Origin: a bacterium
Lineage (GTDB): Bacteria; Patescibacteriota; Patescibacteriia; HK-STAS-PATE-3
DNA length: 54,874 nt
Reading direction: 5' to 3'
Assembly (NCBI GenBank): GCA_043800725.1
Contig: JAZDMR010000023.1
Location: 1 to 54,874, forward strand
This document shows, in pieces, positions 17,301-42,801 of this stretch. Numbering within the stretch: the first letter of the stretch is position 1; each line of letters starts with the position of its first letter. Below the pieces are notes generated by a model. The model was not told the origin of the DNA, ran no database searches, and saw nothing but the letters and a program-made list of their open reading frames with translations. A program made the position numbers and the translations under genes.

Positions 17301-17459
17301 CCCTCATCGAACACTTGGGCCCGTCCTCCGAAGCTACGCTTCGTAGGAGCGGAGCTAGGGTTAAGCGTGAGATGAATAAGGGACATCCTTCCTAAGGACG
17401 AAGTGGGCTCGACTTTTTCGAGTACACGTAGTTCGCAGGAAGAGATGGCCCGCGACCCG
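17301..17459 (+). ncRNA. tRNA-end element family, full copy C abutting tRNA-Pro (strand tentative)
   Basis: Carries the conserved module and all helices of the family. Its last base is adjacent to the TGG (CCA complement) of tRNA-Pro. It has an extended P2 cap hairpin. Confidence 0.6.
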
Positions 17460-17567: not shown

Positions 17568-17599
17568 TCCGCCTAAGGCGGAAACTGCGCTACAGCTCG
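17568..17599 (-). repeat. GC hairpin plus a duplicated 5' 17 nt of tRNA-Pro
   Basis: TCCGCC-TAA-GGCGGA hairpin (17568-17582), followed by AACTGCGCTACAGCTCG (17583-17599), which is 16/17 identical to tRNA positions at 17520-17536. Confidence 0.8.
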
Positions 17600-36219: not shown

Positions 36220-36293
36220 TGGCAGGGGCGGAAGGTGTCGCACCCTCGTTGCCGGTTTTGGAGACCGGTGTTCTACTGTTGAACTACGCCCCC
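36220..36293 (-). tRNA. tRNA-Trp (anticodon CCA), CCA encoded, with non-canonical D- and T-loops
   Basis: GGGGGCG-TA-GTTC-AACAGTA-GAAC-A-CCGGT-CTCCAAA-ACCGG-CAAC-GAGGG-TGCGACA-CCTTC-CGCCCCT-G-CCA. The acceptor pairs fully (G1.U72). The D-loop lacks GG, and the T-loop is TGCGACA rather than TTCRANN. Confidence 0.8.
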
Positions 36294-36536
36294 ATCATCG
36301 ATGTTGGACAATCAAATATTTTTAGCACGTATCGCGCTGTTGTTCAATGGTGGGCTTCACACATGAGTCGCGTTCGATACTCCGTACCCCTGGCAGGGGA
36401 AAAGCGGCTCGAACTACATGGGTCGCCCCTCGTGTATTATTTCGGAAATATGGAGAAAATTCAATAGCTTCGGAAACTGATTTGACTTGATACTATTATT
36501 CATATATAATCTCATATAGTCATTATATATGATACT

Positions 36537-37589
36537 ATGGACCGTAGAGAACAGCGAATCGCAAGTATTCCCCAACACATCTGGTCGCTGGTCAATCAAA
36601 TTGATCAGTTGAAAGGCCAATGGATCGGCGGGGCTCAATTAAACCCCCAGGCACTCGGGCGGCTGAAGCGTTCGGTTTTGGTTACGTCGAGCGGTGCCTC
36701 CACCCGTATTGAAGGAGTAAAATTGTCAGATGAGGACGTGGAAAAGCTCATGCGCGGACTTTCGATTACCAAATTCGCCGACCGGGACAAGCAGGAAGTC
36801 TGGGGATACTACGAACTCCTTGAAAATGTCTTCAATTCCTGGAAGCACATTCCGTTTACGGAGAGCACAATCAAGCACTTCCACAAGGAGCTCTTGAAGC
36901 ACGTGAACAAGGATGCGCTGCATCGAGGTGAATATAAGACTTCGGAGAACAGCGTGGAGATATTCGACGAGAACGGAAAATCGCTCGGGGTCATCTTCAA
37001 AACGATTCCGGCCTATCTCACTCCGAAGCGAATGCAGGAATCGGTAGAATGGACGCGATGGGCCTTGAAGGAAGAGACACAGCATCCACTATTCCTCATG
37101 GCGAACTTCATTGTCGAGTTTCTCGCTATTCACCCGTTCCAGGACGGGAACGGCCGGCTCGCGCGCATTCTCACGAATCTGCTCATGTTGAAAAGCGGCT
37201 ACGCCTATGTGCCGTACGTTTCCCATGAAAAACTTGTGGAAGACAACAAGGCCGATTACTATGTCGCGCTCCGGAGAAGCCAGATAACATTCGGTACTAC
37301 GAAGGAAACAATCGCGCCCTGGCTTGAGTTCTTTCTGGCCATTGCACTTACCCAAGCCCGCCAGGCGATTAATCTGCTCTCCCGTGAGAATATCGAGAAG
37401 CTGCTGTCCCCGAAACAACTCGCGGTTTGGCAGTATCTTGAGCAGGTTACGGAAGCGACGCCAGGACAAATTGCGAAAGCGGCTCACGTCGCTCGTCCGA
37501 CCGTGTCGCAGGCACTAGAGGTATTGTTACGCCTGAAGAAAATCGAGCGGATCGGGCAGGGCAGGACGACGCGGTATCGGAGGCAATAG
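36537..37589 (+). CDS. Fic-family protein (probable AMPylase) with an N-terminal inhibitory motif and a C-terminal wHTH
   Basis: Fic core HPFQDGNGRLARIL, upstream SxxxEG-type motif (ASTRIEGV) and a C-terminal HTH-like QIAKAAHVARPTVSQALEVLLRLKKIERIGQGRTTRY. Confidence 0.9.
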   Translation: MDRREQRIASIPQHIWSLVNQIDQLKGQWIGGAQLNPQALGRLKRSVLVTSSGASTRIEGVKLSDEDVEKLMRGLSITKFADRDKQEVWGYYELLENVFNSWKHIPFTESTIKHFHKELLKHVNKDALHRGEYKTSENSVEIFDENGKSLGVIFKTIPAYLTPKRMQESVEWTRWALKEETQHPLFLMANFIVEFLAIHPFQDGNGRLARILTNLLMLKSGYAYVPYVSHEKLVEDNKADYYVALRRSQITFGTTKETIAPWLEFFLAIALTQARQAINLLSRENIEKLLSPKQLAVWQYLEQVTEATPGQIAKAAHVARPTVSQALEVLLRLKKIERIGQGRTTRYRRQ

Positions 37590-37600
37590 AGATAATTTGT

Positions 37601-37855
37601 ATGGCAAAGAAGGTAAAGGCTCTTCATGCGCTCAATTGGTACTACGGCAACATCTGCTCGCGGAAGTGCCCGGAAGAGAAGCAGAAAAGCCACTACGACC
37701 GCATGCACGAGATCATCAAAGGGCACGGAGAGTTTCTTATTACCCATACAATGTTCATCAAGGTCATGTATAACAAGTACCACGTTTGCGGATTAAGCGA
37801 CGAGGAACTTCGACGGCCGACTCGGGATTTCTGGAGACTGAAGTGTCTTCCATGA
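37601..37855 (+). CDS. 84-aa Cys/His-rich hypothetical protein
   Basis: Starts 12 nt after the Fic stop, and its TGA overlaps the ATG of the next gene (ATGA at 37852-37855). It has 4 Cys and 7 His. Confidence 0.55.
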   Translation: MAKKVKALHALNWYYGNICSRKCPEEKQKSHYDRMHEIIKGHGEFLITHTMFIKVMYNKYHVCGLSDEELRRPTRDFWRLKCLP

Positions 37856-40008
37856 TTACTATCACAGACGAACAGCTCGCGCTCTATCAGTCGCTGTTTC
37901 GCGGACGTACCGATGTGTATGCGAAACGGTGGGAAAAGAACGGACGGTCCGGATATTACCCTGCCTATCAGTTCGATTGGGCCGAGTTTCTCATCCACCA
38001 GCGTCGCGGCGGAAATATGGCAACGTTCGAAGGCAAGACCCCGCTTCCGTTGACGCCTGACGTGGTCAAAAAGCACCTGATCGGGCAGTACACCGTAGGA
38101 GTGTATCCGTTACTCAAAAACAATACCTCATACTTCATTGTTGCCGACTTCGATGGTCCCCAGGCGTTCGATGACGCAAAGAAGCTGGTCAAAGCCTGCA
38201 GCGAACTTCGACTTCCCGCGTATATTGAGCGATCCCGTTCGGGCAACGGTGCGCATGTGTGGTTATTCTTCGAAAATGCGTTCCCGGCTGCCCGAAGCCG
38301 CATGATTATGCTTGAGTGTGTGCGCAAAGCACTGGGAATGTCCGCTTTCGAAAAGGAGGTATCATTCGACCGGCTGTTCCCGAATCAAGACATGCAAAGC
38401 GGAAAGGGGTTCGGTAACCTGATCGCGCTTCCTCTCCAGGGTATATCTCTCGGACAAGGGAATACTATTTTCCTTGACCCGAAAACACAGGCTCCATATC
38501 CCGACCAGTGGGTATTTCTCCCAACAATTCACCGAATTCCTTCGAGGACGCTGGACCAAGTATTTGATACGATCGTGCGAGGTGACATGAGCGCTACGAC
38601 GGACGCCGCATCGACCGGGAAAATCACTCTTCGCCTTGATTCAGGGATTCGCACAGCAAAAGTCCGGCTCGATAAGGAAACGGTCAGCTTTCTTCGGGAG
38701 GAATTGAATTTCCCCAATCTCGACTACTGGCTGAAACGCAAGCTCGGCAAGAGCACATATCAGACGGATAAGTTTTTCCGATTGATCGACGAGGAAGGAG
38801 AAGATGTTGTCCTGCCCCGGGGTTTTCTTTCCAAACTCACTGACCATTTCCGGATGCGGGGAATACCGTTTGTCATCCATGACAAGAGATCAGTACTGCC
38901 CGAAGTCACCTTCTCCTCCGCGATTGAGCTACGACCGTCTCAAGTCGGCCTCGTCGAGCAAGCAACGGAGTCCGACCAGGGCGTTCTTGTTGCACCGCCC
39001 GGGAGCGGGAAGACGGTTATGGGCCTTCAGCTTATCGCCCGCCGGAAACAACCGGCGCTGATTCTCACGCACCGGAAGCAGATCATGGACCAGTGGATCG
39101 GGCGCATCCAAGAATTTCTCGGGATACCGAAAGCGCACATCGGCCGGATTGACGGCGTGAAGAAAACAATCGGTGACAAAATCACTGTCGCGATGTTGCA
39201 GAGCATGAACCGTCGGGAGGACGCGAGCAAAATTCGTAACCGTTTCGGAACAATCGTCATTGACGAGTGCCAGCACCTTCCCGCAAAAACATTTCGCGAA
39301 GTTGTTTCTCATTTGAATGCCCGGTACTGCTATGGATTAACAGCAACACCGAAACGCAAGCACAACGACGAAAAACTCATTTATCTCTTCATCGGAGATA
39401 TTATTGCGGAACTGCCGGAGCAACTATCCGTTTCCAAGACGACCGAAGGGAATACGTCCGTTGCCGTACGTTCGGTGATTATCCACGAAACCGGACTTGA
39501 GATTCCATTCTCATTCACTGCCGACGACTACCAACTGCTGGCGCGTATTGTCTCGTTCGATCAGACTCGTAACCGTCTTGTCCTGAACGACATCCGTCAT
39601 TCCGTCGGGTTCGGATTGAAAACACTGGTGTTAAGCGAGAGAAAAGAACATCTGGAAGTGTTGCGCCTCTATCAAAAAGGGATCGCCGAATCCATCCTCA
39701 TCACTGGCGACGACTCCCTTGCATCGCGGAAAAGCAAATTTGCCCAGATTGCTTCCGGCCACTATCAGATTCTCTTCGCAACCGGGCAACTCCTCGGAGA
39801 AGGACTGGATCTTCCCGATATTCAAGCGGTTATCCTCGCATTTCCGCTCGCGTTTGAAGGAAAGCTCGCGCAATACATCGGACGCATCCGGAGCGACAAT
39901 AAGACCGTCTATGACTATCATGATGCGAAAACACCGTTTCTTGATCGTCAATTCAAAAAACGAAAAAAGTTCTATGAGAAGAACGGCTTTATCCTAACTG
40001 GTTCTTAA
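37852..40008 (+). CDS. AEP-type primase-polymerase domain fused to an SF2 (DExH) helicase
   Basis: N-terminal half: FRGRTDVYAKRWE, YFIVADFDG (DxD) and SRSGNGAHVWLFF (SGxGxH). C-terminal half: APPGSGKT, VIDECQH, GLTATPKR and QYIGRIRS. The start is set at the ATG coupled to the upstream ORF; the track ORF starts at 37786. Confidence 0.8.
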   Translation: MITITDEQLALYQSLFRGRTDVYAKRWEKNGRSGYYPAYQFDWAEFLIHQRRGGNMATFEGKTPLPLTPDVVKKHLIGQYTVGVYPLLKNNTSYFIVADFDGPQAFDDAKKLVKACSELRLPAYIERSRSGNGAHVWLFFENAFPAARSRMIMLECVRKALGMSAFEKEVSFDRLFPNQDMQSGKGFGNLIALPLQGISLGQGNTIFLDPKTQAPYPDQWVFLPTIHRIPSRTLDQVFDTIVRGDMSATTDAASTGKITLRLDSGIRTAKVRLDKETVSFLREELNFPNLDYWLKRKLGKSTYQTDKFFRLIDEEGEDVVLPRGFLSKLTDHFRMRGIPFVIHDKRSVLPEVTFSSAIELRPSQVGLVEQATESDQGVLVAPPGSGKTVMGLQLIARRKQPALILTHRKQIMDQWIGRIQEFLGIPKAHIGRIDGVKKTIGDKITVAMLQSMNRREDASKIRNRFGTIVIDECQHLPAKTFREVVSHLNARYCYGLTATPKRKHNDEKLIYLFIGDIIAELPEQLSVSKTTEGNTSVAVRSVIIHETGLEIPFSFTADDYQLLARIVSFDQTRNRLVLNDIRHSVGFGLKTLVLSERKEHLEVLRLYQKGIAESILITGDDSLASRKSKFAQIASGHYQILFATGQLLGEGLDLPDIQAVILAFPLAFEGKLAQYIGRIRSDNKTVYDYHDAKTPFLDRQFKKRKKFYEKNGFILTGS

Positions 40009-40054
40009 AAACCATCGTCGGTAGACACTCGGGTCGCACGATAACATTTCATCC

Positions 40055-40128
40055 CCGCAGAGGCAGAGGGAATCGAACCCCCGTTTCAGGTTTTGGAGAC
40101 CCGTGTTCTGCCACTGAACTACACCCCC
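40055..40128 (-). pseudogene. tRNA-Trp(CCA)-like gene with a non-pairing 3' acceptor strand (pseudo-tRNA or recombination junction)
   Basis: GGGGGTG-TA-GTTC-AGTGGCA-GAAC-A-CGGGT-CTCCAAA-ACCTG-AAAC-GGGGG-TTCGATT-CCCTC is followed by TGCCTCTGCGG instead of CACCCCC-N-CCA. Confidence 0.6.
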
Positions 40129-40888: not shown

Positions 40889-41263
40889 TTAATTGGATAT
40901 ATTCCTTTTACTAGCAAGATATTTAATAAACGCATTTAGACTTTTAAGTAGTTTTTCAAATTCGATATCTAGTTGTTGAGAAGTTTTTTTTATTAATGAA
41001 TTTAAGCCCCTTAGCTACTTTTATGTGACTTCTTGTTTCAAATATTTCTGCTCTTGCGATATATTATACTCGAATACGATCCGTATAGGAAAATCTTCCT
41101 TGGCTTTCTGCAATATTTGCAGTGATGCTGTTGGCAGATCGGCGAAGCTGGTTTGTTATTCATATTGCTCGGAAGAAGGGAAAGTACCGGTTACTTTATA
41201 GATCTCCATTGTCAGGTCATACGACAACTTCCAAACATCAAGTTTATTAAATGAATCAGGCAT
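40889..41263 (-). pseudogene. four-helix-bundle protein (23S rRNA intervening-sequence protein family), with a stop and frameshift
   Basis: MPDSFNKLDVWKLSYDLTMEIYKVTGTFPSSEQYE-stop, then other frames continue as ..ANSITANIAESQGRFSYTDRIR.. and ..LDIEFEKLLKSLNAFIKYLASKRN. This pattern is typical of the TIGR02436-like family as I remember it. Confidence 0.55.
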
Positions 41264-41293: not shown

Positions 41294-41323
41294 TAATAAA
41301 CCAATTTATTTTAGTTTAACCCG

Positions 41324-41398
41324 TGGAGCCGGAGAGAGGATTCGAACCCCCGACCTTCACTTTACAAAAGTGTTGCTCTACCCCTGAGCTACTCCGGC
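41324..41398 (-). tRNA. tRNA-Thr (anticodon UGU), CCA encoded
   Basis: GCCGGAG-TA-GCTC-AGGGGTA-GAGC-A-ACACT-TTTGTAA-AGTGA-AGGTC-GGGGG-TTCGAAT-CCTCT-CTCCGGC-T-CCA. Confidence 0.9.
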
Positions 41399-41404
41399 GT
41401 ATTG

Positions 41405-41755
41405 TTAATTAATTTCTAACCTCGGAATAATATCAATGGGCGGTTCTTCATAAGGGTGGGCTGCTTTTAAGGCTTTAACTACTTCCTCTACTTTATCTTT
41501 GTGGCATAGTGTTTCGATCACTTCTTCCTCAACTTCTTCCAGCTTGCCTACCTCGCCAATACTGGGACTCGCACCTTGCTGAGGAATATATCGACCGATC
41601 GAAGTATGTGAACCGCTGGCATGAGAATAATTTCCTTGCACGCCGGCACCAGCATCACCCAAAGCTTTCCGCATCTTGTCTGCCTCCGCCTTAGGCACAG
41701 CTGTTTGAATTTTCACGTAATCTGATTCTCGTAGTAACATATTAATCTCCCCCAT
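41405..41755 (-). CDS. stand-alone Nif3/YqfO PII-like insert-domain protein (COG3323-like)
   Basis: GAGVQGNYSHASGSHTSIGRYIPQQGASPSIGEVGKLEEVEEEVIETLC..AHPYEEPPIDI resembles the YqfO insert domain. The true start may be the internal MLLRES, because the first codons overlap the repeat element. Confidence 0.6.
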   Translation of the reverse strand: MGEINMLLRESDYVKIQTAVPKAEADKMRKALGDAGAGVQGNYSHASGSHTSIGRYIPQQGASPSIGEVGKLEEVEEEVIETLCHKDKVEEVVKALKAAHPYEEPPIDIIPRLEIN

Positions 41756-41867
41756 CGAACGCTTGGGCCCGTAGGGTTAAGCGTGAGATGGAAAGGGGCA
41801 TGCGCCGTAAGGGCGAAGCAGAAGCGACTTGTTCGCTTCTACGCAGTCCGCACGGCGCAATGACCCG
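41751..41867 (+). ncRNA. tRNA-end element family, full copy abutting the tRNA-Tyr-like 3' fragment (strand tentative)
   Basis: CCATCGAACGCTTGGGCCCGTAGGGTTAAGCGTGAGATGG plus the second domain. Its last base is adjacent to the TGG at 41868. Confidence 0.6.
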
Positions 41868-42026
41868 TGGTGGGCCGAGTAGGATTCTCCCGCACAATAT
41901 TGTTTTTGAAGCGGTTTGCGGGATCCCGCTATGACGCGGGAGAACCTACGAAGGCGTAAGCCAGCAGATTTATGCCGCCTTGGGCGGCACCCCGCCAAAG
42001 GCGGTGGCAGTCTGCCCTCAACTCCC
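41868..42026 (-). pseudogene. 3' two-thirds of a second tRNA-Tyr gene (B), with a 35-nt anticodon-loop insertion and a 54-nt T-loop insertion
   Basis: Outside the insertions at 41973-42007 and 41888-41941, the sequence from the anticodon loop to the T-arm is identical to tRNA-Tyr at 42029-42114. The acceptor 3' strand is TCGGCCC-A-CCA. Confidence 0.7.
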
Positions 42027-42374
42027 TCTGGTGGGTGGAGTAGGATTCGAACCTACGAAGGCGTAAGCCAGCAGATTTACAGTCTGCCCCTGTTGACCGC
42101 TTAGGTATCCACCCACCAGAGAGATTTGAATTATTTTTTTAATAAGCTTCTTAATGGCTTCTCCACCTTTGTATGATTTGATTTGTCGTTCGCGCTGATA
42201 TGCTTTATTGCGCGATTGGAAGCTCTCGTAATATATCAGTTTCCATGGAATTCCAGATTTTGTGGAACGCACCTCACCTTTATTATGATCCTTTATTCTT
42301 TCCTTGAGATCTTCCGTCGAACCAACATAGTATCTGCCAATTCTTTCACTTTTGAGAATATAGGTTTTGTACAT
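42018..42374 (-). CDS. small GIY-YIG nuclease-domain protein (ORF reads through tRNA-Tyr)
   Basis: MYKTYILKSERIGRYYVGSTEDLKERIKDHN..YQRERQIKSYKGGEAIKKLI is a GIY-YIG/URI-domain pattern. There is no stop until 42018, so the last ~35 codons overlap the tRNA gene. The track start is at 42404. Confidence 0.7.
   Translation of the reverse strand: MYKTYILKSERIGRYYVGSTEDLKERIKDHNKGEVRSTKSGIPWKLIYYESFQSRNKAYQRERQIKSYKGGEAIKKLIKKIIQISLVGGYLSGQQGQTVNLLAYAFVGSNPTPPTRGS
42029..42114 (-). tRNA. tRNA-Tyr (anticodon GUA), long variable arm, CCA encoded
   Basis: GGGTGGA-TA-CCTA-AGCGGTCAA-CAGG-G-GCAGA-CTGTAAA-TCTGC-TGGCTTACGCCTTC-GTAGG-TTCGAAT-CCTAC-TCCACCC-A-CCA. Confidence 0.9.
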
Positions 42375-42417
42375 ACAACTACATTCAAATTTTATCGTCT
42401 TCATCTAGAATAATAGA

Positions 42418-42505
42418 AGTCTGCCCCGTTTTCCCGCCACTGAATTAATTAATATTGGTTGGCGGGACCCCGCAGAATGCGGTGGGACCGCTTCGGTATC
42501 GACCC
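42418..42505 (-). pseudogene. 5' third of tRNA-Tyr gene B (acceptor to U33), with a 54-nt D-loop insertion
   Basis: GGGTCGA-TA-CCGA-AGCGGTC-[54 nt at 42432-42485]-AAAC-GGGGCAGACT. GGGTCGA pairs with the TCGGCCC strand at 41872-41878, a compensated 5:68 pair relative to tRNA-Tyr at 42029-42114. Confidence 0.65.
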
Positions 42506-42535
42506 AAGTTAAGTTATTATGTGATGATCAAGGCG

Positions 42536-42653
42536 ACCGTCGAACGCTTGGGCCCGATAGGGTTAAGCGTGAGACGGAGAGGCACACTCTTGCGAAGGGC
42601 GCAGTGAAGACAACTTGTTTGTCTTCACGTAGCCCGTAGCAAGTGATGGGCCG
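42536..42653 (+). ncRNA. tRNA-end element family, full copy abutting tRNA-Thr(GGU) (strand tentative)
   Basis: CCGTCGAACGCTTGGGCCCGATAGGGTTAAGCGTGAGACGG plus the second domain. Its last base is adjacent to the TGG at 42654. Confidence 0.6.
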
Positions 42654-42729
42654 TGGAGCCCACGAGCAGACTTGAACTGCTGACCTACTCCTTACCATGG
42701 AGTTGCTCTACCAGCTGAGCTACGTGGGC
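42654..42729 (-). tRNA. tRNA-Thr (anticodon GGU), CCA encoded
   Basis: GCCCACG-TA-GCTC-AGCTGGTA-GAGC-A-ACTCC-ATGGTAA-GGAGT-AGGTC-AGCAG-TTCAAGT-CTGCT-CGTGGGC-T-CCA. Confidence 0.95.
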
Positions 42730-42785
42730 ATGATTATTTATACTAGGTTAATTGTGCCTAATAAATATCAAATGATTATGTAAAT

Positions 42786-42798
42786 CCGTCGAACACTT
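42786..42798 (+). repeat. orphan 13-nt start motif of the tRNA-end element
   Basis: CCGTCGAACACTT equals the P1 5' strand, GA and P2 5' strand of the family, with nothing further. Confidence 0.35.
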
Positions 42799-42801
42799 AG
42801 A

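Follow-up and report, generated by a model that had tools for sequence, protein, structure and literature searches.

In fungal mitochondria, the mORFs of Allomyces macrogynus (atp6) and Glomus (atp6, atp9, cox2 and nad3) are endonuclease open reading frames (ORFs) that carry a foreign gene end (PMC3630166). A free-standing LAGLIDADG or GIY-YIG ORF lies there in an essential gene together with a foreign partial copy; the hybrid is functional, the native part is left as an unused remnant, and the sequence differences between the displaced and inserted parts indicate a horizontal origin (PMC3630166). Here we describe a comparable arrangement in a tRNA gene of a bacterium, within a stretch of 54,874 nt from a member of the Patescibacteriota (candidate phyla radiation, CPR; GenBank assembly GCA_043800725.1, contig JAZDMR010000023.1, positions 1–54,874; hereafter the window). 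A tRNA-Tyr gene, tRNA-Tyr B, is split by a cassette that holds the gene of a small GIY-YIG nuclease and a second, intact tRNA-Tyr, tRNA-Tyr A, and GC-rich hairpins interrupt its pieces further.

Other described systems touch on parts of this arrangement. Double-hairpin elements (DHEs) are known from the mitochondria of chytrids and fission yeast (Paquin et al. 2000, as cited in PMC10085805). In the latter account they are about 35 nt long, GC-rich in an AT-richer genome and built of two hairpins; they occur between genes and inside structural RNA genes, are indel-polymorphic among relatives and near-identical across distant species, and their mechanism of movement is given as unknown. In phage T4, the free-standing GIY-YIG homing endonuclease SegB is encoded within a tRNA gene cluster (PMC2330249), and SegB-driven amplification has been reported (PMC13096335). 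The rRNA genes of CPR bacteria contain inserts with GIY-YIG ORFs that are introns of neither group I nor group II (PMC11270868), and tRNA genes with several introns or in separate parts occur in archaea (Thermoproteales, Nanoarchaeum, Caldivirga; PMC10714607). Our literature search returned no description of the nuclease/tRNA cassette arrangement in bacterial tRNA genes. Endonuclease-mediated gene replacement and double-hairpin elements are both known, but here they are found in bacterial tRNA genes, and the family is apparently undescribed.

Organization of the split tRNA-Tyr locus

tRNA-Tyr B is encoded on the minus strand, as are all features of the locus given here, in five pieces that surround a 400-bp cassette (42417–42018) containing only the nuclease ORF and a tRNA. 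Piece E1 (42505–42486) comprises tRNA positions 1–20, i.e. the acceptor 5′ strand, the D-stem 5′ strand and the start of the D-loop, and agrees with tRNA A at 18 of its 20 positions. It is followed in the D-loop by hairpin insert a (42485–42431; 55 nt, two tandem GC-rich hairpins, predicted fold −23.6 kcal/mol), the hairpin closest to the nuclease gene, and then by piece E2, AACGGGGCAGACT (42430–42418), which extends from the D-stem 3′ strand to U33, where the gene is broken. A spacer or leader (42417–42375) separates the break from the start codon of the nuclease gene (42374–42135; 80 codons, MYKTY...KKLIKK), and downstream of this gene lie the intact tRNA-Tyr(GUA) A with an encoded CCA (42114–42029) and an 11-nt spacer, gagggagttga (42028–42018). 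The 3′ part of B begins with a repeat of the anticodon stem 5′ strand to U33, GGGCAGACT, plus G34 (42017–42008), continues with hairpin insert c, CCACCGCCTTTGGCGGGGTGCCGCCCAAGGCGGCA (42007–41973; 35 nt, between G34 and U35), piece E4 (41972–41942; U35 to C56) and hairpin insert d (41941–41888; 54 nt, two tandem hairpins in the T-loop between C56 and G57), and ends with piece E5 (41887–41868; G57 to CCA, acceptor 3′ strand TCGGCCC).

When E1, E2, the G, E4 and E5 are joined, ARAGORN recognises a perfect 85-nt tRNA-Tyr(GUA), which places the arrangement far beyond chance; the unspliced gene gave no ARAGORN call. B is a different allele from A. The acceptor strands are GGGTCGA/TCGGCCC in B and GGGTGGA/TCCACCC in A, so that pair 5:68 is C:G in one and G:C in the other, and position 69 is G versus A; the D-stem pair 12:23 is likewise compensated (G:C in B, T:A in A), and the D-loops differ in length by one base.

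A preliminary description of this DNA, made from the sequence alone, had noticed the split gene. The observation is real and its anatomy right, but it contained coordinate slips and overlooked the three hairpin inserts. As it had stated, the 5′ fragment runs from 42505 to ...GGGGCAGACT at 42418, the 3′ fragment ends in ...TCGGCCCACCA at 41868, and the 9-nt GGGCAGACT is shared at the break (42426–42418 and 42017–42009). The 3′ fragment starts at 42017 and not at 42026, however, since 11 nt and not two (42028–42018) lie between the intact tRNA and the repeated GGGCAGACTG, and the insert size of 391 bp proved to be the offset between the two tRNA starts, the true size being 400 bp. The intact tRNA-Tyr(GUA) was recovered at the position given (ARAGORN; Rfam tRNA model, 58.6 bits), the identity of the 3′ fragment with it from the anticodon loop to the T-loop extends over 31 nt (31/31 in E4), and the compensated change at 5:68 between the paired acceptor strands of the fragments was joined by that at 12:23.

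The acceptor stem of tRNA A is prolonged by a 15-bp helix between a leader arm (42129–42115) and a trailer arm (42032–42018) that includes the 11-nt spacer; the arms measure 22 nt overall and are 91% complementary. In the close relative described below this helix is maintained through compensating changes. tRNA A is presumed to be the working copy and is probably excised from the nuclease transcript at the long, 22-bp processing-type helix by RNase P, RNase Z or RNase III.

Recurrence of the arrangement in CPR metagenomes

A search of metagenome contigs with an alignment of the nuclease gave at least 600 candidate stretches and at least 510 confirmed relatives, from which the best 80 loci were kept; 77 of these had enough downstream sequence for counting adjacent tRNAs. 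The arrangement is not restricted to the window but is one member of a large CPR-wide family in which several tRNA species are targeted. Of the 77 loci, 63 have a same-strand tRNA that starts between −8 and +111 nt after the nuclease ORF, the background being 0.018 per equivalent stretch; it is tRNA-Ser in 35, tRNA-Tyr in 18, tRNA-Pro in six, tRNA-Thr in two, and tRNA-Cys and tRNA-Lys in one each. Most of the other loci have a tRNA closely upstream of the ORF or no more than 350 nt away. The preliminary description had allowed that the nuclease might be an ordinary conserved COG2827 gene with synteny unrelated to tRNA-Tyr. The protein is indeed COG2827/UPF0213-like, yet this proportion of tRNA-linked loci, compared with a background of about 0.02, ties the gene to tRNAs.

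Displaced pieces often accompany the nuclease as well. In 49 of 57 loci the ORF is preceded, at a distance of 50–130 nt, by a 5′ piece of the same tRNA that begins at position 1, and in 20 of 52 a 3′ piece follows on the downstream side; each count exceeds the 99th percentile of shuffled controls. At 72 of 76 loci an all-GC hairpin is found no more than 100 nt from the ORF, compared with 107 of 570 control stretches (19%). The usual plan is a tRNA 5′ part with a D-loop or anticodon-loop hairpin, 5–15 nt of tRNA, a short spacer, the nuclease ORF, the intact tRNA and, in some cases, a hairpin-bearing 3′ part. The window fits this plan: from the end of hairpin a it is 13 nt to the break, after which comes the ORF. 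A mirror-image plan (intact tRNA, ORF, hairpin, 3′ part) was found at L067, L069 and L077, tandem arrays of tRNA piece, hairpin and GIY-YIG ORF at L051 and L069, and serial remnants at L026 and L030. Counted by anticodon, the architecture was seen at no fewer than ten tRNA species in unrelated genomic contexts, and this design together with the GC-rich double-hairpin inserts recurs in hundreds of CPR tRNA genes.

In two other genomic contexts (L004/L046 and L037) the displaced 5′ and 3′ pieces pair together and differ from the intact copy, as in the window. Some displaced remnants are chimeric, the inner part corresponding to the incoming and the outer part to the resident tRNA, as expected from co-conversion. 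Displaced 5′ pieces show 0–1 mismatch in 35 to the tRNA of their own genome, whereas they differ at 2–10 positions from the tRNAs of other genomes with related nucleases and hairpins. Nuclease clades track the type and position of the hairpin better than the identity of the tRNA (the D-loop type CCACC...GGTGG spans Ser, Tyr and Cys in one clade); nuclease and hairpin thus travel together. A one-to-one correspondence between nuclease clade and tRNA type was considered and rejected, Tyr, Ser, Pro and Thr being interleaved in the tree.

One further locus, L115, has downstream of its GIY-YIG ORF (approximately 2245–2565) a tRNA-Tyr with an anticodon-loop insert of about 190 nt, after CTGTA, that is not a GC hairpin and matches no intron family at gathering level in Rfam.

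The hairpin elements

The hairpin inserts, which the preliminary description had passed over, are an integral part of the arrangement. Inserts a, c and d form one family with two tandem GC-rich hairpins (CCACCGC..GCGGGG-T-CCCGCC..GGCGGGA). By chaining intact tRNAs against their own flanks we delimited 101 distinct, precise inserts, of which 43 lie in the anticodon loop, 30 in the D-arm or D-loop and 16 in the T-arm or T-loop. Their median length is 37 nt and their GC content 64%, compared with 42% in the window. Their flanks share no common sequence, the common feature being their position in a tRNA loop.

Among 24 aligned copies of the 35-nt class, to which insert c belongs, the two-hairpin fold has 93% of its pairs formed, and five pairs changed on both sides, a number reached in none of 500 shuffles; one pair is G:C 16 times, C:G six times and U:A twice. 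This covariation supports the hairpins of insert c. A nested single-hairpin fold is likewise compatible with the 35-nt element: its four arms are alike and its two loops partly complementary, so that it approaches a perfect palindrome.

When genomes were scanned with the core of insert c, the 35-nt element turned up nearly unaltered in about 18 metagenome-assembled genomes (MAGs), mostly Patescibacteria, with one labelled Omnitrophica and two labelled UBP2 or 'uncultured bacterium'. Where this element lies in tRNA sequence (11 loci; Tyr, Thr and Ser) it is always in the anticodon loop of a tRNA fragment, and in all 11 an intact, insert-free copy of the same tRNA stands beside it; a GIY-YIG ORF follows directly at L004, L010, L015 and L026. 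Copies outside tRNA sequence, in intergenic DNA, were also observed (L005, L007, L019, L021, L024, L028 and L035, including the MAGs labelled Omnitrophica and UBP2), several of them followed by AAA(A)(G/C)(C)GAAG. The hairpins thus combine a short, GC-rich two-hairpin fold with compensating changes, indel polymorphism (see below) and near-identity across distant taxa, as do double-hairpin elements; the GC clusters of yeast mitochondria offer a further comparison. The hairpins belong to the nuclease module, standing about 5–15 nt from the break by the nuclease gene, yet they also move alone.

An example without a nuclease gene lies in the window itself, on the minus strand at 17599–17568, upstream of tRNA-Pro(CGG) (17536–17460): a tRNA-Pro 5′ piece, CGAGCTGTAGCGCAGTT (17599–17583), is followed by the hairpin TCCGCCTTAGGCGGA (17582–17568), more insert, GGCTAG, a short spacer and the intact tRNA-Pro.

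Two other identities were considered for the hairpins and rejected. A generic dispersed repeat does not fit, as besides tRNA-Tyr B and the tRNA-Pro remnant the 55-kb window has only scattered, isolated GC-rich hairpins, none of them like the family. Miniature elements of the IS200/IS605 type were suggested by the two hairpins and the lack of a duplicated target, but no target sequence is common to the left flanks.

The nuclease

The cassette ORF matches Pfam PF01541 (E = 1.5e-15, over the curated cut-off), in agreement with the GIY-YIG assignment of the preliminary description, and the best matches of the protein in the PDB are the UPF0213 protein BH0048 (E = 2e-4) and then SLX1. Residues Y5, Y16, G18, R26, H30, N31 and E62, invariant in 35 relatives, are all present in the window protein, which retains 12 of 12 family-invariant residues. 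Judged by these matches it is a UPF0213/Slx1-like GIY-YIG nuclease, and a dN/dS of 0.13 (dS 0.43) against its closest relative shows purifying selection. The window's own protein had no entry in the contig index searched.

In its placement, outside any group I or group II intron (Rfam) and within a split tRNA gene, the ORF resembles a free-standing homing endonuclease gene. The relatives are 79–91 aa long and consist of the catalytic domain only, without the separate DNA-binding domain of homing endonucleases; I-TevI and SegB both have DNA-binding parts besides the catalytic one.

In the window the ORF lacks a stop codon of its own before the tRNA. Relative to the close relative, whose nuclease ORF has its own stop codon, an A-run holds one extra A (42115–42140 versus 740–770 in that contig), and the frame reads through 38 codons into tRNA A to a TGA at 42020–42018, the end of the 11-nt spacer. 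The extra A may be a real change or a homopolymer sequencing error. In several nuclease relatives, too, the ORF extends into the tRNA by a few codons (with tails such as ...GGVA).

Comparison with a close relative

L001, a contig from a JGI metagenome, encodes a nuclease 88% identical as a protein and is collinear with the window throughout the locus. Two ENA contigs (L002 and L003) hold the same arrangement, and the layout shared by these independent contigs is therefore not an assembly artefact. Insert a of L001 contains a second, nested 55-nt double hairpin that is absent from the window, and more small hairpin insertions occur nearby; hairpin elements are thus gained or lost between close relatives.

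The pieces of tRNA B are identical between the two genomes at 84 of 84 positions (E1, 20/20; E2, 13/13; E4, 31/31; E5, 20/20), as is tRNA A at 86 of 86. Over the same stretch the spacers are 33–75% identical, with a leader that is non-homologous to its counterpart (33%), 17 of the 80 third-codon positions of the nuclease gene differ, the repeat with G34 shows one change in 10 nt, and the hairpin loops have drifted (insert d is 80% identical, with changes mostly in loops).

A second tRNA gene differs between the two genomes. At the neighbouring tRNA-Thr(UGU) the window keeps the resident gene, whereas L001 (1674–1850) carries an intact tRNA-Thr(UGU) of different sequence with a 3′ remnant behind it. 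This remnant is chimeric, ends like the window-type gene and bears a T-loop hairpin, and no nuclease gene is present. The two states constitute a replacement polymorphism between relatives.

The comparison with related genomes that the preliminary description had proposed thus brought to light similar cassettes at other tRNA loci, but no empty, i.e. uninvaded, tRNA-Tyr allele among close relatives. An empty site was also sought through homologues of the neighbouring 110-aa gene, of which approximately 70%-identity copies were found in other contexts with no tRNA-Tyr upstream.

Origin of the arrangement

We consider it probable that a small mobile module, composed of the mini GIY-YIG nuclease gene, the intact tRNA-Tyr A and the GC-rich double hairpins, invaded tRNA-Tyr B and took over its function. 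The preliminary description had read the locus as a resident tRNA-Tyr disrupted by a nuclease gene that brings a tRNA-Tyr of its own as the working copy, and this reading is supported by the window and by many other loci. The cleavage and homing that we infer would proceed as follows. The nuclease would break DNA in or beside a tRNA gene, and repair would copy the occupied allele, the tRNA sequence itself serving as the homology arms. The copied segment would include a whole or partial tRNA, by which an intact tRNA would be re-formed beside the nuclease gene, and the displaced parts of the resident gene would remain as 5′ and/or 3′ pieces. The host would keep a working tRNA, and the invasion would therefore be tolerated. 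If donor and recipient tRNAs were alike, only the duplicated 5′ part would remain; if they were unlike, as in the window, the whole foreign tRNA would be kept, because mixed acceptor strands would mispair, and both resident ends would remain. The hairpin may serve as a recognition structure of the nuclease, may shield the remnant against cleavage or may block recombination that deletes the ORF.

Several points weigh against this explanation. A regenerated intact tRNA should retain any target within the tRNA, which leaves immunity to self-cleavage unaccounted for, and a bare catalytic domain of about 80 aa with no DNA-binding domain leaves the finding of the target unaccounted for. The window ORF is missing its stop codon. 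No empty tRNA-Tyr allele was found among close relatives, the sole one, L001, sharing the cassette, so that we infer the mobility of the window cassette rather than see it. Finally, the identity of the B pieces (84/84) is too high for a simple dead remnant, and as B-specific bases persist it cannot be explained by conversion by A. Possible causes are selection on the homology arms of the element, renewal of the arms at each invasion, or continued use of B; the truncated 5′ pieces elsewhere are equally well kept though no tRNA can be formed from them, which argues for selection on the arms or their renewal.

More tentatively, and with less confidence than not, we suggest that the GIY-YIG mini protein and the GC-rich double hairpin constitute a two-component mobile system of a kind undescribed in bacteria. 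The Slx1-like, structure-specific nuclease would then recognise its own palindromic hairpin or cruciform and not a sequence via a binding domain; nuclease and hairpin would together spread through the loops of tRNA genes and let the host survive by carrying or regenerating a copy of the tRNA, and the hairpins would correspond in bacteria to the DHEs of mitochondria. In a bolder variant, a bacterial pathway not yet identified may process hairpin-bearing pieces into functional tRNA, which would be compatible with the 84/84 conservation of the B pieces.

Among the alternatives, the one with most in its favour gives the leading part to the hairpins: an autonomous selfish DNA would insert into tRNA loops and kill the tRNA copy, the tRNA duplications, whole or partial, would be rescue products, and the Slx1-like nuclease would either be a structure-specific enzyme that cuts extruded hairpins or cruciforms, with the hairpin and not the tRNA as its target, or be a passenger. 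In the chains inspected, 5–15 nt indeed separate the ORF-proximal hairpin from the break, whichever side of the ORF it is on, an all-GC hairpin is found near the ORF at almost all loci (72 of 76), and nuclease clades follow hairpin type and position over Ser, Tyr and Cys. Hairpins with displaced pieces also occur where no nuclease gene is present (the window tRNA-Pro, L006, L009, L012 and L030), they are indel-polymorphic between close relatives, the element is a near-perfect palindrome with covarying arms, and the structure-specific SLX1 is among the nearest solved relatives of the nuclease. We nevertheless regard this explanation as unlikely. The host could not survive an insertion into an essential tRNA present only once, so that a spare copy must pre-exist; the hairpin is already present in young displaced pieces that equal the intact copy, which points to co-transfer rather than later accumulation; cleavage of hairpins by the nuclease is hypothetical; and no common target sequence flanks the inserts. 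We give still less credence to a tRNA-Tyr B that is functional, its hairpins and the 400-nt cassette being removed as RNA in the manner of archaeal multi-intron or split tRNAs, possibly with the GIY-YIG protein acting on RNA, such that the locus would provide two tRNA-Tyr species. It is true that the inserts are precise, that they lie in loops (D-loop, 34/35 and 56/57), that their removal yields a perfect cloverleaf, and that the predicted pre-tRNA fold keeps this cloverleaf with the hairpins protruding. The B pieces are also as invariant between the two genomes as tRNA A (84/84 and 86/86, against one change in the 10-nt repeat and 33–75% identity in the spacers), B-specific compensated pairs included. 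Against this, the 11 inspected tRNA loci with element c each have the same tRNA close by in an intact form without insert; most loci have only a truncated 5′ piece, unable to make a tRNA yet equally well kept; and chimeric pairs of displaced pieces, mismatched in the T-stem or acceptor, occur at several loci (L004/L046 and L092). By inspection, no bulge-helix-bulge is present at exon-insert junctions, Rfam finds no group I or group II intron, and the unspliced gene drew no call from ARAGORN. We know of no bacterial splicing endonuclease for such inserts.

Least credible, and already largely refuted, is the absence of anything mobile, i.e. a local tandem duplication of tRNA-Tyr that decayed in place beside an ordinary conserved COG2827 housekeeping gene. 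The closest relative having the same arrangement, the purifying selection on the nuclease and the membership of the protein in the widespread UPF0213 family of unknown function would all agree with it. It fails, however, on the recurrence of the architecture at ten or more tRNA species in unrelated contexts, with related nuclease-plus-hairpin modules in divergent host tRNA alleles; on the compensated pairs that distinguish A from B, which are not simple duplicates; on the replacement polymorphism at tRNA-Thr; and on the tandem arrays and both orientations observed. Decay in place also leaves unexplained the precise hairpin inserts of conserved sequence, shared across phyla.

Three established classes of insertion were tried and rejected. 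For a group I or II intron, the Rfam search gave no Intron_gpI match in 41300–42800 even at E ≤ 10, and no intron family at gathering score over the whole window. An archaeal-type spliced intron or split tRNA is contradicted by the lack of a bulge-helix-bulge, by inspection, at the junctions of a, c and d or in the predicted folds (both junctions of insert c fall in a 6 × 6 internal loop, and not in 3-nt bulges 4 bp apart), by the adjacent intact copy and by the truncated or chimeric pieces. An island of the integrase type, bounded by partial tRNA repeats (attL/attR), would be expected to carry a recombinase; the 400-bp insert encodes neither a tyrosine nor a serine recombinase.

Relation to described systems

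The closest likeness is to the mORFs: an endonuclease ORF, a supplied gene copy and a displaced native remnant occur together in the window, at L004/L046 and L037, and in the survey generally. The host gene of the mORFs is a mitochondrial protein-coding gene, whereas here it is a tRNA gene in a bacterial chromosome. Here, moreover, the supplied copy is an entire tRNA or its 5′ part, the working copy is usually situated downstream of the ORF, the protein is a bare catalytic domain of 80 aa and GC hairpins are its constant companions. These hairpins match the description of DHEs in PMC10085805, the comparison being one of description and not of sequence. As far as that account goes, they differ in being bacterial (CPR), concentrated in the loops of displaced tRNA pieces and tightly linked to a GIY-YIG gene.

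With SegB the family shares a GIY-YIG gene among tRNA genes, a cleavage and repair that would bias the inheritance of neighbouring tRNAs, and possible tandem amplification, the arrays at L051 and L069 being reminiscent of nuclease-driven segmental amplification (PMC13096335). SegB is, however, a phage protein encoded between intact tRNA genes, with no split target, no carried replacement of the same tRNA and no hairpins. The present family is essentially absent from the viral collection searched, and a phage origin found little to build on there: 2.9 million viral contigs yielded one distant nuclease relative and no hairpin match.

The inserts in CPR rRNA genes belong to the same group of organisms and likewise place GIY-YIG ORFs within structural RNA genes (PMC11270868). 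That article does not contain the word tRNA, and hence reports neither tRNA targets nor duplication of tRNA gene parts, and it uses neither 'hairpin' nor 'palindrome'. Archaeal tRNA genes offer short inserts in the D-loop, anticodon loop and T-loop, genes in pieces, and related inserts that recur in different tRNAs, described as intron transposition (PMC10714607). In contrast, the present host is bacterial, no bulge-helix-bulge was seen by inspection, there is no evidence of splicing, and an intact copy lies alongside pieces that are mostly truncated or chimeric, whereas in archaea the interrupted gene is the functional and often the only copy.

Other features near the tRNA genes

Three tRNAs in the window, those for Pro, Tyr (B) and Thr-GGU, have a structured element of about 115 nt immediately after their CCA end (17340–17459, 41750–41867 and 42530–42653, minus strand). 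It consists of a long imperfect hairpin, in which the sequence varies but pairing is kept, and a stem CCRTC-TC-ACGCTT...AAGCGT-TC-GAYGG, and matches no Rfam family. In L001 it was found at 1–50, 190–310 and 1085–1290, where extra copies with small hairpins in their loops occur. The motif AAG(C/T)GTTCGA(C/T)GG is present three times (41752–41764, 42537–42549 and 42786–42798), 25–60 nt upstream of the starts of the 110-aa ORF, tRNA-Tyr B and tRNA-Thr-GGU. By inspection, TTCGAC is followed 17 nt on by a −10-like hexamer in two cases, and could therefore be the −35 region of a promoter.

ORF fragments after tRNA-Thr(UGU) (41020–41263, minus strand; MPDSFNKLDVWKLSYDL...) resemble a decayed gene for the four-helix-bundle '23S rRNA intervening sequence protein'. 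An intact-looking version occupies the same place in L001, and L119–L121 carry PF05635 genes near the L33 gene. Elsewhere in the window (36220–40128), two non-identical tRNA-Trp(CCA) genes (36220–36293 and 40057–40128) enclose a Fic-domain gene (36537–37589) and the gene of a 740-aa protein with a TOTE-type archaeo-eukaryotic primase plus helicase (37786–40008). The region probably represents a conflict-system island that was inserted here, with the tRNA duplicated or replaced.

Biological significance

If our explanation is true, the tRNA genes of CPR/Patescibacteria would be a major habitat of a selfish element that enters an essential RNA gene without an intron, by bringing or rebuilding the gene itself. 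Such an element would account for stray tRNA fragments, duplicated tRNAs and the many ORFs annotated as 'GIY-YIG family protein' beside CPR tRNAs, and would affect both tRNA counts and calls of tRNA pseudogenes. It would also offer a concrete, testable function for the large UPF0213/COG2827 family and a tractable system for studying how GC-rich double-hairpin elements move, a question that has stood since their discovery in fungal mitochondria. For the bacteria themselves, it would be a route for the horizontal exchange of tRNA alleles.

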